Of a DNA stretch of 45,755 nucleotides, positions 28,880-45,755 are shown piece after piece. A model generated the notes under the pieces. That model saw nothing but the letters and a program-made list of their open reading frames with translations. It did no database searches and had not been told where the DNA came from. Position 1 is the first letter of the stretch; each line of letters opens with the position of its first letter. A program made the position numbers and the translations under genes. Origin of the DNA: a virus (Duplodnaviria > Heunggongvirae > Uroviricota > Caudoviricetes); IMG/VR virus record IMGVR_UViG_2703718845_000006. One strand, written 5' to 3'.

Positions 28880-30040
28880 ATGACTACACTCAAAGAACTC
28901 AAAGAAGAGCTTGCTCAGATACAAGATGAACACGCTAAGAACAGAAAAAAGGCTGAAATTGCAGCTTTAACCGCTTCCGCTGACAATGAAATCAGACTCG
29001 CTCAGAGAAACATTGGATACAATGTACGTGAGTGGACCGTTGAAGTCATTATTCAAAAGTATGGTGATAATATTGAAAATGACAAAAACGAGCTTTTTAT
29101 TCCAGATTATCAACGTGATTACAAGTGGGATACAAAAACAGCCTCTCGCTTTATAGAAAGTATTCTATTAGACTTTCCAATACCTTACCTTTACATTGCT
29201 GATGTATTTAATGAAGACCCTGAATTAGATGGTAGGGTAGAAATCATTGATGGTTCACAACGGATACGCTCTATTTATTATTTTTGGAACGATCAATTTG
29301 AGTTAAAGGATTTGAAAGAGCTTAAAAGTTTAGAAGGTTTCAAATTTTCAGATCTTTTAGCTAGCCGCCAAAGAAGATTTTTAAGAGCTTCACTAAGATT
29401 TATTGAGTTGAAAGGTGATGTTGAGGAACAACATAGAAGAGATTTATTTGAAAGGATCAACTCAGGTGTTAAAAGATTAGAAGCGATGGAAGTGAGGCAT
29501 GGCTCAGATGCTGCTACCTCAATGTTCTATAAAGATGTTGTGACCCCATGCTCAACAAACTCACTTTTTTCCCAACTAGCTCCATTATCAGACCGGAAAC
29601 GGTCGAATGGCGATCATCGTGAGTTAGTTTTGAGATTTTTTGCATATTTAAATGATTTAGAAAACTATAAGGGATTTGTCCGTCCCTTTATTGATAATTA
29701 TTTAAATGAACAAGCAGCAGCTGTGACTACTCAACAAGATGTTGATAATTTTAAACATGATTTTGAAATGATGCTTGCTTTTGTTGCTACCCATTTCCCT
29801 ATTGGCTTTAAAAAGACCGCAACAAGTAAAACCACCCCACGAGCCAGATACGAAGCCATTGCCGTGGGAACTGCACTTGCATTAAAAACTAACCCACAAC
29901 TCCAGAGTCCAGCCGTACCTGTAGGTGAATGGCTATTTGAAGAGGAATTTGAAACACTTGTTACTGCTGATAGTGCAAACAATACCAGCCAGCTAAAAAA
30001 CAGAATCTTTTACGTTAAAAATAAGTTGTTAGGGATTTAA
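28880..30040 (+). CDS. DUF262 (ParB-like nuclease/NTPase, GmrS-like) domain protein, 386 aa
   Basis: IPDYQRDYKW and DGSQR (aa 124-128, nt 29249-29263) match the DUF262 signature; AAGGAA RBS 8 nt before the ATG; AT-rich; no DUF1524/HNH-like C-terminal domain recognised. Confidence 0.85.
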   Translation: MTTLKELKEELAQIQDEHAKNRKKAEIAALTASADNEIRLAQRNIGYNVREWTVEVIIQKYGDNIENDKNELFIPDYQRDYKWDTKTASRFIESILLDFPIPYLYIADVFNEDPELDGRVEIIDGSQRIRSIYYFWNDQFELKDLKELKSLEGFKFSDLLASRQRRFLRASLRFIELKGDVEEQHRRDLFERINSGVKRLEAMEVRHGSDAATSMFYKDVVTPCSTNSLFSQLAPLSDRKRSNGDHRELVLRFFAYLNDLENYKGFVRPFIDNYLNEQAAAVTTQQDVDNFKHDFEMMLAFVATHFPIGFKKTATSKTTPRARYEAIAVGTALALKTNPQLQSPAVPVGEWLFEEEFETLVTADSANNTSQLKNRIFYVKNKLLGI

Positions 30041-30042
30041 AA

Positions 30043-30732
30043 ATGAGTCTAATTGATTTACGAGATGAATATGAAGAAAGAGCAAGAGACATTATGGAAC
30101 TGCTTTCTCTTGCATCATCTATAGAGATTCATACTCAGCAGTTAGATCCGCAAGCGCATCAAGATGAAATAGAATCTAATATCCTAAGGGTAAATATTTT
30201 AAAATCATCCGTTCATATGATGCTATATAATCAAGTTGAAAATACTGCCAGAGGTTGCATCGAGTCAATTTATGATCATTTACAAGATAATGAGGTGAAT
30301 TACGCATCACTCAGGGAGAAGCTTCAAGTAAATATATTACATAGAATTGTTTCAGATAATGAAACAGGGCAATCCCTTTATAAAAAGATAGGCACTGACA
30401 TTTCCAAAAGAATAATTTCAGCCTCATTGAATATTCGTAAAGAATTCAATGGTAATGTTTGCAAGCCTGTATTACACAAAATAACGCAGGCTTACGGAAT
30501 AACTATCGCAAACTCACCTGAATGTAGAAATGGTATTGACTTAGACTTGCTTAAGGATATCAGAAACGAACTCGCGCATGGAAGTACTAGCTTCTCTAAA
30601 AAGGGGCAAATTGACCCCTTAGAAGAAGTTAAGTCTAGAGCAGAGAGAGTTGATCTATATCTTCGTTTATTAATAAACTCAACTGAAGATTATATTATCT
30701 CTAACGGATATTTATCCCCTCAACATGCCTAA
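30043..30732 (+). CDS. HEPN-like protein (putative nuclease), 229 aa, translationally coupled to the DUF262 gene
   Basis: Starts 2 nt after the DUF262 stop; R-x4-H motif RNELAH at aa 174-179 (nt 30562-30579) in a predicted helical protein; 3' end overlaps the convergent methyltransferase gene by about 32 bp. Confidence 0.75.
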   Translation: MSLIDLRDEYEERARDIMELLSLASSIEIHTQQLDPQAHQDEIESNILRVNILKSSVHMMLYNQVENTARGCIESIYDHLQDNEVNYASLREKLQVNILHRIVSDNETGQSLYKKIGTDISKRIISASLNIRKEFNGNVCKPVLHKITQAYGITIANSPECRNGIDLDLLKDIRNELAHGSTSFSKKGQIDPLEEVKSRAERVDLYLRLLINSTEDYIISNGYLSPQHA

Positions 30733-31741
30733 CAAACGTTCTCCCTATTACTTGGCCAATTATAGGGGGAACAGCATTACCAATCATCGTTCCTAACTTT
30801 TGGAATGAAAAAGGCGTATTTTTTCCAATAAATTTATAATCCATAGGAAAAGATTGTAAAATAGCAGCTTCACGCAAAGTTATTGCTCTATTTTGCTCAG
30901 GATGTCCGAATCGCCCATTACCATATCCATAACATTGGGTAGTTATTGTAGGACTAGTATCGTCCCAAACCATCCGTCCATAAACACTTTTATAGGTAGC
31001 ACCTGAATGCTTTTTATGGCAATCCGCTCTAATTTCTTCAGGCCAATCATCCCACGTACCACCTGGTAAAGAGTGCAAGATTCGTTTAAGGTTAATATCC
31101 CTTAATTTAGGCGAACGATGCAATGGATCACTTTCGAGTTTCTCCCCTGCACCTATTTTTGGCAACTGACCAATAGCATCCTTTACTGTAACTTTACGGC
31201 TTACTTTTTTTTGATCAAGGCTGATTGGCCCCAATATGGACCCAATTAGAATTAATCTACGTCTATTTTGAGGCAAGCCATACTCGGAACATTTTACAAC
31301 GTCGTACCACAGATGATACCCAAGAGTCTTTAATACACTAACAAACTCTTCAAAAACCTTATGATTTCTAAGTTGAGGAACATTTTCCATAGTCACAAGC
31401 TCTGGCATGACATCACTTACAATCCTCTGAAACTCAGATAAAAGACGCCACTTTGTATCATCTTTTCTGCTATTTGGATTACGATACTTGGAAAACGGTT
31501 GGCAAGGGGCACAGCCTGCAAGTAATCTAATATTTCCTTCCTTGAACATAGCAGACACATCGCTGGATTGCAGTTCAGTAACTGACTGGTTAATGAACTT
31601 CGTTAAGGGATTATTGCTCTCAATAGCGAAACGGCAGGACTCATCAATATCAATGCCATGAGAAACTTCAATCCCGGCTTTTTTTAGCCCAAAAGTTAAG
31701 CCCCCTGCGCCACAAAAAATGTCTACTGCTTGAATGTTCAC
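30701..31741 (-). CDS. DNA (cytosine-5) methyltransferase
   Basis: Motif I FCGAGG, motif IV GCAPCQPFS (PCQ), motif VI ENV, motif VIII QNRRR, motif X GNAVPP; GTG start with GGAGA RBS; a TATAAT hexamer lies in the 80-bp gap after Q. Confidence 0.9.
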   Translation of the reverse strand: MNIQAVDIFCGAGGLTFGLKKAGIEVSHGIDIDESCRFAIESNNPLTKFINQSVTELQSSDVSAMFKEGNIRLLAGCAPCQPFSKYRNPNSRKDDTKWRLLSEFQRIVSDVMPELVTMENVPQLRNHKVFEEFVSVLKTLGYHLWYDVVKCSEYGLPQNRRRLILIGSILGPISLDQKKVSRKVTVKDAIGQLPKIGAGEKLESDPLHRSPKLRDINLKRILHSLPGGTWDDWPEEIRADCHKKHSGATYKSVYGRMVWDDTSPTITTQCYGYGNGRFGHPEQNRAITLREAAILQSFPMDYKFIGKNTPFSFQKLGTMIGNAVPPIIGQVIGRTFVRHVEGINIR

Positions 31742-43426: not shown

Positions 43427-43561
43427 TATGCCTTAGATCAGATGTAAGCTGACACACCACTATGGCACAGAGTCAAACCTAATCTAACTACCTGCTCTGT
43501 GCCAAAAGAAGATACTACTAACATAAGTATAAAATAATCAACGGGACACAGCTCATCTGTA

Positions 43562-44380
43562 CTACTCCACAAGCGGGATAAGTTTTTTACCTGTGTCTTC
43601 AAAGAATGAAAACGAAGACCAGCGGTAAGTATATAAAAAAGCCACTTTGCCTGCATGTTCTTCGATAGCTTTTTTTAAATATGACTTGCGTTTACTGACT
43701 TCTGGAAATTTATCCGAAAAGATAACTATTGCTCTTGATGATAGTCCACCACCATTCCGCATAAAGAGAGTAAACTCACTCAATCTAAGCATATTGAAAT
43801 TTGCACAATTCGCTACATCATTATCAAACTTAGCAACTATACTTTTTATTTTGTCATACAGACTGACCATATCCCTAAAAATATTTTCATCTGCCAACTG
43901 AATATTTCTTTCATTCAACTCTGTTATATATTTATTATCATCCACTATTCCAATAGGATATCGAGCATTTAAAACTATATCTCGAGACGCAACTTTCAAT
44001 AACTTCAGTTCGTCAACGGTTAATGGCAAACCTAAATCAACAGCCATACAATCAAGTTTATGCCCATAATTACAAAACTCATTTTCAATAGCTTTTTTTC
44101 TCGCACCGAGATTCATTAGAAGAATCGCTGACTTTAACAACATTTCAAAAGCATACCCCAACATAAGTCTGCTAGTTTGATCAGTTGCCGATGCGATATC
44201 GATGTATTCATGAACAATAGGAGATTTCTTACTTGCTGCCCGAAGCAATTTTTTGTTTCGCTCACCTTCACTTCTCAACAGCTTCGCAGATAAATACAGT
44301 TTTTTAGACTCTGTTAACCAAGCCTTTCGATCAAATATACCTTTCCCATTTTTCTGCGTGATTATCTCGCTCTGCATCAA
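43562..44380 (-). CDS. Hypothetical protein, 272 aa, AT-rich cargo gene between xis and int
   Basis: Clean AT-rich ORF, predicted mostly helical, no motif I can assign with confidence; flanked by AT-rich non-coding DNA. Confidence 0.6.
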   Translation of the reverse strand: MMQSEIITQKNGKGIFDRKAWLTESKKLYLSAKLLRSEGERNKKLLRAASKKSPIVHEYIDIASATDQTSRLMLGYAFEMLLKSAILLMNLGARKKAIENEFCNYGHKLDCMAVDLGLPLTVDELKLLKVASRDIVLNARYPIGIVDDNKYITELNERNIQLADENIFRDMVSLYDKIKSIVAKFDNDVANCANFNMLRLSEFTLFMRNGGGLSSRAIVIFSDKFPEVSKRKSYLKKAIEEHAGKVAFLYTYRWSSFSFFEDTGKKLIPLVE

Positions 44381-44531
44381 TAACTCCTATGTTATTAGAA
44401 CCAAACCTGCCACTAATCAATTGCAAATCTCGTCGCTGTTATTTTGACCAGACATTACATTGTCTCCATTTGTAAAATACCACTTAACTAACTTGAATGA
44501 GAAATTGTAAGTATTCCGACAAAACAGACTA

Positions 44532-45755
44532 TCAGTTGGGGTCTGAGCTAGCACAAGTAATGATCGATTCAACCCTCTCCCACCACGCCTGGTAGGCTTT
44601 ACGCTGTTCTTCTAGATAATCGCTCTTGTCATAAACCTGCCAAACCCCTGGCAGTTTATGGCCGAGCATTATTTCTGCAATATGAGGAGCAGTAAGATCA
44701 GAAAAGTTTGTTCGTGCTGTTCGCCTCAAATCATGAAGAGACCAATGAGGGAATTGATACCCCAAACTCCGCCATGCGTACTGCATTAAATTGTAAGGCA
44801 GCGACTGCAATGATGTTCGACCAACGGGTTCCCTGCTTCCTTCCTTAGTAAAAAGCATATCGGAACCATTGTTCATAGAGATAGCGTTCTTTATAAGCTC
44901 CTCCACCGGTTCAATAATGGGCCTCTTTAGCGGTTCGCCTGTTATCTCCCCAGTCTTATGTCGTTCTGGTGGTACAGTCCATACCTTATTAATGAAATCA
45001 AAATCGTCCACCCTGGCAGTAATTAGCTCTGAACTACGGCAGCCAAAATGCAGCAATAGCTTAATGAAGGCCCGGTATTTAGGAACCATTCGAGAACCAT
45101 CGATCGCAGCATAAAGGATTTTAATTTCATCATGTGTCAGAAACCGTTTCTTCTGACCTTTACGGATATCCATATCTTTACCCGTGATATCCGACAGCGG
45201 GCGAGTTTCAATGAGCTTTCTCTTATACGCCCAGACATGGGCCTGCTTTGCGTTAATTAGCAATCGGTCTGCTATTGCTGGAGTCTTAGTGCTAAGAGGC
45301 TCCAGGACTTCTAACCAATCATGCAATGTAGCTGCATCGTGAGGGATATTCCCGATTTTAGAGAACAGGTGCAGCTCAAACGAGCGGAGTATCTGTTCAG
45401 AACCTTTTTTATTTTTTACACAATATGCTTCATACCAGGCACGGATCACAGACTCTACCGTCATGGCTTCAGTAGCTTTTCGTTTTTCAGCCTGCTTGAC
45501 AAATCGTGGATTACGGTTTGACTCAAGTTCACCACGGAGACGAATAACTTCTTCTCTGGCCTCTTTTAATCCAGTTGCCGGGTAAGTTCCGATATCAAGA
45601 CGCTCACCTTTCCCTGCCCATTGATAACGATATTGGAACACTACGCGACCTTTCGGTGATACTCTGACAGACAGACCATCACGATCGGATTTAACCAAAA
45701 CCTTATCACGTTCCTTTCCAACGACTGAACGCAACCACGCATCAGACAGCGCCAT
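44532..45755 (-). CDS. int: Tyrosine integrase, P4-like (N-terminal arm-binding DUF4102-like domain + catalytic domain)
   Basis: N-terminus MALSDAWLRSV..VFQYRYQWAGKGERLDIGTYP resembles P4-type integrases; catalytic region has R (HFGCRSSE), H-x-x-R (HDLRRTART) and a C-terminal Tyr region (WQVYDKSDY); the ATG is at the last base of the window. Confidence 0.9.
   Translation of the reverse strand: MALSDAWLRSVVGKERDKVLVKSDRDGLSVRVSPKGRVVFQYRYQWAGKGERLDIGTYPATGLKEAREEVIRLRGELESNRNPRFVKQAEKRKATEAMTVESVIRAWYEAYCVKNKKGSEQILRSFELHLFSKIGNIPHDAATLHDWLEVLEPLSTKTPAIADRLLINAKQAHVWAYKRKLIETRPLSDITGKDMDIRKGQKKRFLTHDEIKILYAAIDGSRMVPKYRAFIKLLLHFGCRSSELITARVDDFDFINKVWTVPPERHKTGEITGEPLKRPIIEPVEELIKNAISMNNGSDMLFTKEGSREPVGRTSLQSLPYNLMQYAWRSLGYQFPHWSLHDLRRTARTNFSDLTAPHIAEIMLGHKLPGVWQVYDKSDYLEEQRKAYQAWWERVESIITCASSDPN

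Follow-up and report, generated by a model that had tools for sequence, protein, structure and literature searches.

An AT-rich cargo gene between xis and int of a yjjG prophage: a candidate divergent HEPN-type defence protein

Genomic Location of the Gene

The window analysed here, i.e., the whole stretch of 45,755 nucleotides of the IMG/VR record IMGVR_UViG_2703718845_000006 (Caudoviricetes), is a lambdoid prophage with ymfK/T/L and yfdP/Q/R/S-type early genes that is integrated next to yjjG. Between its xis-like gene and its integrase gene (int) lies the AT-rich gene that is the subject of this work and that is considered below as a candidate for a stand-alone anti-phage protein of the HEPN type. 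Scanning the window for open reading frames (ORFs) has yielded an uninterrupted frame at 43562..44380 of the - strand, opposite to the + strand early operon (yfdP/Q/R, DUF551, xis-like ORF) and co-directional with int, downstream of which it is located. A preliminary description of the locus had reported a clean AT-rich frame in this very arrangement, and composition bears this out: the GC content of the ORF is 0.354 (0.306 at its third codon positions) as compared with 0.497 for the window, 0.456 for int and 0.421 for the xis-like ORF, and equally AT-rich stretches make up 4.6% of all 816-bp segments when the whole window is scanned. The length of 272 aa given there holds for the frame as listed by the ORF finder, which starts at TTG; an ATG follows immediately at 44377, and the product is thus likely one residue shorter, with 271 aa. 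An AGGAG ribosome-binding site precedes this ATG by 6 nt (Table 1), and the RefSeq annotation of E. coli MY732 contains the identical 271-aa protein as WP_001190315.1, a "hypothetical protein".

The position of the gene has turned out to be a site of exchange. Sister E. coli prophages carry the same int (94-97% nucleotide identity) and the same xis side, with differing genes in between; conservation of the flanks ends at 43513, xis and an adjoining stem-loop included, and restarts at ~44524-44530 with the int stop codon, limits which place the cassette at about 43514-44528. Together with the window gene, five different cargo genes have been encountered in this slot (Table 1), none of the four others having a match in Pfam or PADLOC. 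The proposal that the position holds accessory genes is therefore well founded, and the xis-int interval is supported as a cargo hotspot with interchangeable contents. A 55-nt block at the 5' side travels with the cassette.

Conservation and Coding Status

Among 5426 complete E. coli genomes, 19 contain the exact cassette, with the same flanks every time, and the exact protein is encoded by 643 contigs from E. coli and Shigella. Full-length homologues with 46-99% identity are spread across Enterobacterales, those with 46-80% identity being found in Klebsiella, Enterobacter, Serratia, Yersinia, Pectobacterium, Pantoea and others. An exhaustive profile search among 1.84 billion proteins has returned 185 representatives at E<=1e-3, 114 of these at E<=1e-10, most of which comprise 260-300 aa and match end to end; the family is gammaproteobacterial, and its named members, from Pantoea, Shewanella and Pseudomonas, are all "hypothetical". 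One retrieved sequence, P0136 (769 aa, 12 repeats), has been discarded as a spurious repetitive p53-like sequence. The term orphan, which had been applied to the gene, is thus appropriate in the sense of unannotated and in this sense only, as the gene is by no means unique. Searches of Pfam, PADLOC v2, PHROGs and NCBIfam with the protein have given nothing usable, and homology to a characterised housekeeping or structural phage protein has been found neither in Pfam, PHROGs and NCBIfam nor among the PDB sequences; a full-text literature search with WP_001190315.1 has produced no match.

The base composition, the lack of a predicted promoter and the deletion of a neighbouring gene (see below) would be compatible with an ORF that arose by chance or is decaying in AT-rich junk DNA. 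Such a non-functional origin has been effectively refuted by the homologues and by selection, and we consider its probability negligible: in an alignment of 58 diverse members with 20-40% identity to the window protein, the sequence is conserved over its full length down to 21-29% identity, dN/dS between gene copies amounts to 0.11-0.18, the ribosome-binding site is strong, and the structure is predicted with confidence. The ORF is a genuine conserved gene under purifying selection. The residue counts given for the family in the following refer to these 58 members.

Predicted Structure and Relation to HEPN Domains

The AlphaFold2 model of the window protein, built from a 22-sequence alignment, has reached a pLDDT of 84 and a pTM of 0.82 and divides the chain into two domains, a helical one formed by residues ~17-185 and a small β-β-β-α-α-β-β domain at residues 195-271. 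Fold comparison has favoured a hunch of the preliminary description, which had seen a weak R...H segment reminiscent of HEPN: HEPN-type structures are the best matches, led by 1wol (10.8, 116/122) and 1ufb (10.5, 114/127) and followed by 7ae2 (10.0), 4nqf (10.0), 2hsb (9.8) and 5yep (9.6), with 1ylm, 3o10, 8xdj, 1jog and 1wwp at 8.7-9.3. The all-α four-helix up-and-down core and the Ex3[KR] motif that characterise HEPN domains (PMC3710099) are both found in the predicted N-terminal domain, the latter as E78 (57/58) and K82 (58/58), which align with E36/K40 of TT1696-type proteins. Beyond K82, the residues W20, H106, Y140 and P141 are invariant, and E23, R35, S69, Y75, R139, R207, G209, G210 and W253 are, like E78, nearly so.

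As a reference for classical HEPN proteins, TT1696, ST0689 and TM0613 from the PDB and 120 PF05168-labelled proteins have been used. Their hallmarks are a W (DWL), E-x3-K, G-H, R-Y-P and a later Y, with R-x4-H counted from that Arg in 108 of 121. In a relaxed hhalign alignment with the 123 PF05168 proteins, W20, E78/K82, H106, R139-Y-P and Y150 of the family are collinear with these hallmarks and located on equivalent helices. R139 is kept in 57/58 members within an invariant A-R-Y-P motif, and H106 (in "NYGHKL"), which is situated 33 residues N-terminal of R139, corresponds to the conserved His of the classical proteins. Accordingly, the earlier hunch was right about the fold and the His and wrong about the Arg, as R94 of the proposed "GARKK" segment is not conserved and the HEPN Arg is R139. 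An Arg that is kept, a motif His that is gone and a strongly conserved His further upstream form the pattern of AbiV and AF0298-type proteins, for which Ex3[KR], the upstream His and the Arg have been discussed as a possible alternative active site; HEPN domains devoid of the catalytic His have also been considered as possible nucleotide- or RNA-binding modules (PMC3710099). Because sequence evidence is limited, the assignment of the N-terminal domain to HEPN rests on the predicted fold and the collinear placement of the motifs; on these grounds it is very probably a HEPN domain, in agreement with UniRef, where one 53%-identical homologue is called "HEPN domain-containing protein".

For the C-terminal domain, no convincing structural relative has been obtained, all matches being too weak for naming a fold, and the RNA-binding flavour of these matches is only a hint. 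A nucleotidyltransferase (NTase) hidden in its "RxGG" segment, or an antitoxin of the minimal nucleotidyltransferase (MNT) type, has been rejected, as no DxD motif follows and no NTase neighbour exists. Neither a transmembrane segment (maximum KD19 1.37) nor a signal peptide is predicted in the protein. A membrane protein of the Sie type, acting in the superinfection exclusion that the preliminary description had mentioned, is therefore unlikely, and this candidate has been rejected for want of a hydrophobic segment.

Origin of the Cassette

The history of the cassette has become apparent from an 80%-identical homologue in the cargo region of a Klebsiella P4-like island (L011), in which int at ssrA is followed by an unknown gene, Abi_alpha, the homologue, a Mrr_cat nuclease, AlpA and a DUF927 primase. 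The pair of Mrr_cat and the family gene, located at 4968-6830 of L011, recurs with 87% nucleotide identity over 1825 nt in an unrelated resolvase-bearing E. coli element and in two Enterobacter genomes. In the window, the 55-nt block that abuts the int stop codon is 87% identical to the region directly upstream of the Klebsiella Mrr_cat gene, and it is probably a regulatory or promoter region, although no consensus promoter has been found in it. The ribosome-binding site and the ATG of Mrr_cat are retained as well, and a relic ORF of 12 codons joins the first codons of Mrr_cat to its last, the interior ~290 codons being deleted. The relic ORF is followed, ahead of the ATG of the gene, by the sequence TTGGTTCTAATAAyATAGGAG, which is common to the Klebsiella cassette. 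Judged from the retained 5' block, the relic ORF and this shared sequence, the window cassette arose by internal deletion from a two-gene operon of Mrr_cat and the family gene, and all 19 E. coli copies have the deleted form.

This origin lends some weight to the main alternative, doubtful in our view: the HEPN-like protein, itself non-catalytic, would assist a separate nuclease effector as its sensor, regulator or immunity subunit. With the Mrr-like PD-(D/E)xK effector deleted in the window, a harmless, orphaned subunit would be left, which by itself would do little or nothing. The intact operon has been kept in two unrelated elements and two Enterobacter genomes, and decaying two-gene conflict systems usually lose the toxic component and keep the harmless one. 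Absence of the Rx4-6H His points in the same direction, as do the raised dN/dS of residues 91-185 in the window lineage (0.29 versus 0.08 between paired copies), the changes unique to the window copy, namely K67Q and T96A, by which it differs from all 21 close relatives, and K/R102C, and a metagenomic member, P0049, that is fused to a C-terminal "RNKHVAH" extension. Against such a partnership, the Mrr-like gene is missing from 18 of 22 compared loci with no other neighbour shared, the HEPN nature of an upstream neighbour in K. pneumoniae has no support from Pfam, BLASTP or PDB, and 643 contigs as well as 19 complete genomes carry the solo form intact and nearly identical; furthermore, the invariant residues make up an active site-like cluster (Ex3K, His, Arg) rather than a mere binding surface.

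A broader version of the same thought, which we hold to be distinctly improbable, regards the whole family as a degenerate-HEPN sensor or adaptor module that can be combined with one nuclease effector or another; the copy in the E. coli prophage would then be a naturally "disarmed" or re-purposed solo form. Candidate effectors would be the Mrr-like PD-(D/E)xK nuclease of the closest clade, the fused "RNKHVAH" domain of P0049 and possibly the tightly linked upstream gene of K. pneumoniae, and if this held, a new modular two-component defence architecture would emerge.

Table 1. Positions of the features discussed; coordinates refer to the window unless a locus is named.
Feature	Position	Strand	Remarks
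Coding sequence, 271 aa	43562..44377	-	Stop codon 43562-43564; WP_001190315.1
N-terminal helical domain, divergent HEPN-T-like fold (predicted)	43823..44329	-	Residues ~17-185; W20, R35, Y75, E78-x3-K82, H106, R139-Y140-P141, Y150 conserved
C-terminal α/β domain, ~85 aa (predicted)	43565..43822	-	Residues 186-271; R207-x-G209-G210, R215, W253, E260 invariant or near-invariant
AGGAG ribosome-binding site	44384..44388	-	Flanking sequence in common with the Klebsiella cassette
12-codon relic ORF	44417..44455	-	MSGQNNSDEICN*
Cassette 5' block, 55 nt	44474..44528	-	Probable regulatory or promoter region
Variable cargo cassette	43514..44528	.	GC 0.35; all between the limits swapped for other genes in sister prophages
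Inverted repeat/stem-loop	43463..43504	.	10-nt perfect arms 43463-43472 and 43495-43504, 22-nt loop; left border of the slot
xis/AlpA-like ORF, 64 aa	43232..43426	+	Helix-turn-helix (HTH_17/MerR-like, below Pfam cut-offs); conserved left flank
P4-type tyrosine integrase (int)	44532..45755	-	Arm-DNA-bind_3, Phage_int_M, Phage_integrase; conserved right flank
Alternative cargo, 515 aa	L002 1569-3116	+	Opposite strand to the window gene; also in L004
Alternative cargo, 239 aa	L003 1613-2332	-	
Alternative cargo, 413 aa	L005 995-2236	-	
Alternative cargo, 377 aa	L006 934-2067	-	
RVT_1 + TIR fusion, 542 aa	1-1629	+	RVT_1 E 3e-19, TIR_2 E 4e-18
GmrSD_N/DUF262 protein	28880-30040	+	
HEPN_MAE_28990 protein	30043-30732	+	E 3e-17
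C5 cytosine DNA methylase	30704-31741	-	

Defence Genes in the Neighbourhood

Neighbouring genes have been compared in 22 loci, and retrieval of loci by narrow alignment has given two genome loci and five viral loci. No universal partner has been found across the 22 loci, in which the family member is the one gene held in common; four of them, all from the closest clade, contain Mrr_cat, three contain DUF1493 and three a resolvase. An adjacent minimal nucleotidyltransferase, as expected for MNT-HEPN pairs, has been searched for in the window and in 21 homologue loci without any NTase-like neighbour being found. Several loci hold recognised defence genes: in the Klebsiella P4-like island, which also bears the Mrr-like nuclease, Abi_alpha/PDC-S47 (E 6e-36) is a neighbour, and elsewhere DRT2 (E 1e-194) with a KAP NTPase (L015), PDC-S31 (L035, E 6e-38), an AriA/PtuA-like ATPase (L029) and a DUF4238 protein (L033) have been noted.

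The prophage itself shows a similar picture, since the gene lies in the third AT-rich island of the window and the other two, which were not visible as defence islands to the preliminary description any more than the deletion origin of the cassette was, contain recognisable defence genes. At one end of the window, a fusion of a reverse transcriptase (RVT_1) and a TIR domain resembles defence proteins of the retron or DRT kind. The second island (28880-31741, GC 0.35-0.40) is embedded among - strand phage genes, and its GmrSD_N and HEPN_MAE_28990 genes may constitute a two-gene defence module with the methylase alongside (Table 1).

Prophage cargo may also serve functions other than defence, such as lysogenic conversion, host physiology, regulation of the prophage life cycle by RNA or nucleotide binding, or counter-defence, and slots beside att or int hold virulence and fitness morons too. 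For the present gene we regard this as unlikely. It would agree with the nucleotide- or RNA-binding roles open to His-less HEPN domains (PMC3710099), with the unknown function of all four alternative slot genes and with the housekeeping-type genes (thiolase, a class II tRNA-synthetase-like gene) that adjoin some distant relatives. On the other hand, the protein has no signal peptide or transmembrane segment, defence genes recur beside homologues in independent loci and fill the other AT-rich islands of its own prophage, and conservation of the phage backbone does not extend to the gene, which is hence not needed for the life cycle.

Further observations have been made around the homologues. 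On the metagenomic contig L015 (7246-12436), a distant member lies 1.5 kb from the DRT2 reverse transcriptase and the KAP NTPase, which has 1120 aa, and a Peptidase_C1 gene is located upstream. In Pantoea, Enterobacter and Serratia, a pair of DUF8209 and DUF1493, or DUF1493 alone, recurs no more than 1-2 kb away from the family gene (L007 4841-5607, L018 8115-8821, L017 5752-6078). Downstream of the family gene, Pantoea (L007 7692-8345) and K. pneumoniae (L010 7598-8266) encode proteins of 217/222 aa with an N-terminal hydrophobic segment and 59% mutual identity, for which PADLOC gives no match. In the same K. pneumoniae locus, a 236-aa gene with the segment "NRHAFAHG" (L010 5289-5999, +) has its end 1 nt ahead of the family gene; its interpretation as a canonical HEPN protein has been rejected, as Pfam, BLASTP and PDB lend no support. 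The Rx4-6H-like "RNKHVAH" in the C-terminal extension of P0049 (491 aa) is likewise without support from these three sources.

Proposed Function

The interpretation that we put forward, and to which we give an even chance, is that the gene encodes a stand-alone, cytoplasmic, two-domain anti-phage protein of the HEPN type, resembling abortive-infection proteins and carried as prophage cargo. It draws on the fold, on the active site-like cluster, on the variable cargo slot, on the recognised defence genes that accompany the relatives and occur in the prophage itself, on the lack of a universal partner among the 22 loci and on HepS as a precedent. In such a mechanism, the lysogen would produce the protein from the 5' block of the cassette or by read-through from int, and the protein would rest in an inactive state until it meets a trigger brought by an infecting phage. 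The HEPN domain would dimerise and thereby bring together two clusters of E78/K82/H106/R139 as a metal-independent RNase or RNA-binding site, as in the "alternative His" model that has been put forward for AbiV and AF0298. The C-terminal domain with R207-x-GG, W253 and E260 might sense the trigger or hold the RNA, and RNA cleavage would finally stop translation and abort the infection. Expression, oligomerisation, trigger and substrate are all modelled here by analogy with HepS, AbiV and Tha.

Several observations weigh against this proposal. The case for defence is one of association, and in its closest clade the gene is paired with the Mrr-like nuclease and may consequently not work alone. 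No consensus promoter has been predicted around the gene and no terminator has been called. PADLOC-DB v2 contains no significant match, the best ones being noise (REase_II with E 0.0012 over 40 residues, PDC-S19 with E 0.0067), and no PADLOC family is common to the 58 members; tblastn against INPHARED phages and PLSDB plasmids has detected no relative, and WP_001190315.1 does not appear in the portions of the DefensePredictor supplements that were searched. Remote homology gives little help to the HEPN assignment. The window protein matches no Pfam HEPN family, and just one of 58 members matches PF05168 (E 0.0028); family profiles have come back empty from the PDB sequences at E<=10, hhalign against a three-sequence HEPN alignment has found nothing, and the P of 0.041 obtained by hhalign against the 123 PF05168 proteins is matched by 5 of 40 block-shuffled controls and has not been counted as evidence. 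Even in the Foldseek comparison with the PDB, in which HEPN ranks first, all E-values are >= 0.2. With regard to the active site, no conserved His is present at R139 +3 to +8 in the 58 members, and HEPN domains without the canonical Rx4-6H His can be non-catalytic. In addition, residue 102, four positions before the invariant His (codon 44072-44074), is Cys solely in the window copy, whereas K/R is found in 52/58.

Comparison with Known Systems

Solo HEPN proteins of prophages have reportedly been recognised only recently as self-contained abortive-infection systems, HepS and Tha being the examples. HepS (STM14_3211) of the Salmonella prophage Gifsy-1 is a solo HEPN protein that rests as an inactive oligomer, is activated by a phage tail-tip protein and aborts infection as a tRNA anticodon nuclease (PMC13043305). 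The window protein shares with HepS the organisation as a single HEPN-domain protein in the accessory cargo of an enterobacterial lambdoid prophage without partner or inhibitor gene. It differs in that HepS has R100-x4-H105 in a single domain of <250 aa, whereas the 271-aa window protein has no motif His, carries an extra C-terminal domain and is encoded between xis and int; by the criteria described for HepS, as well as by the empty PDB profile searches, it is set apart from that family. Tha of S. aureus prophages, a HEPN defence protein that is switched on by a structural protein of the infecting phage (PMC11087260), is a functional analogue only and belongs to an unrelated host and phage group.

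AbiV of Lactococcus is a small abortive-infection protein and a metal-independent rRNase; in L. cremoris, AbiV has R91-x5-H97 and needs the abiV2 RNA as inhibitor (bioRxiv 10.1101/2024.05.05.592566). It has been grouped with AF0298-type HEPN-T proteins, which retain the Arg, usually have no motif His and contain a conserved His further upstream (PMC3710099). The HEPN-type character and the pattern of Arg and upstream His are similar in the window protein. AbiV, with its 201 aa, has nothing equivalent to the C-terminal α/β domain, the window protein has no match to Pfam HEPN_AbiV, and no RNA partner comparable to abiV2 has been seen here, where no search aimed at it was made. Classical HEPN-T proteins of PF05168 (TT1696 1ufb, ST0689 1wol, TM0613 1o3u, AF0298 2hsb) are the best structural matches and present W, Ex3K, G-H, R-Y-P and Y in the same order on the same helices. 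They comprise ~120-135 aa, are usually paired with a minimal nucleotidyltransferase and mostly contain R-Y-P-x-x-H (108/121 sampled). The window family differs from them by two insertions, one separating α1 from α2 and the other K82 from H106, and by its additional domain; its Arg is not followed by a His, MNT genes are absent from its neighbourhood, and it scores below the Pfam threshold. A HEPN-T-like domain with the "alternative His", joined to an undescribed C-terminal domain and encoded in a prophage cargo slot, is a variant that is not a member of the HepS or AbiV families. The slot itself recalls the defence hotspots of P2 and P4 (PMC9122126; PMC13586616), in which contents are likewise swapped among similar elements between conserved phage genes; in the present case it belongs to a lambdoid prophage at yjjG, and none of the five cargo genes matches a known system.

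If the stand-alone defence function holds, a solo-HEPN branch would be added that lacks the canonical catalytic His and carries an unrecognised C-terminal domain, a result that specialists would find plausible and not surprising. The proposal of 2013 that the HEPN active site can make use of an upstream His as a substitute could be tested directly on this protein, and the natural deletion of the Mrr-like partner provides a ready-made comparison of solo and paired forms. The xis-int slot in this family of yjjG prophages, in which no fewer than five uncharacterised genes occur, is a compact and easily cloned source of candidate defence genes.

The Stem-Loop and Other Minor Features

A stem-loop had been described as separating the gene from xis. 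It is present and does separate the two, and it has proven to be part of the conserved xis-side phage backbone and not of the cassette. Its interpretation as a terminator or structured RNA has been rejected: a U-tract is absent on either strand, no terminator has been called, folding z-scores of -1.46 and -0.58 are no better than those of shuffled sequence and not significant, and in two sister prophages the stem-loop is degenerate with no compensatory changes that would amount to covariation. Perfect inverted repeats with arms of at least 9 bp and loops of 3-30 nt number 21 in the window versus 4.5 in mononucleotide shuffles, and the stem-loop is accordingly one of many. The xis/AlpA-like ORF next to it is kept in the sister prophages, yet it is unannotated in the RefSeq record of MY732. 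At the opposite end, positions 1-1629 form the most AT-rich part of the window, with a GC content of ~0.32.

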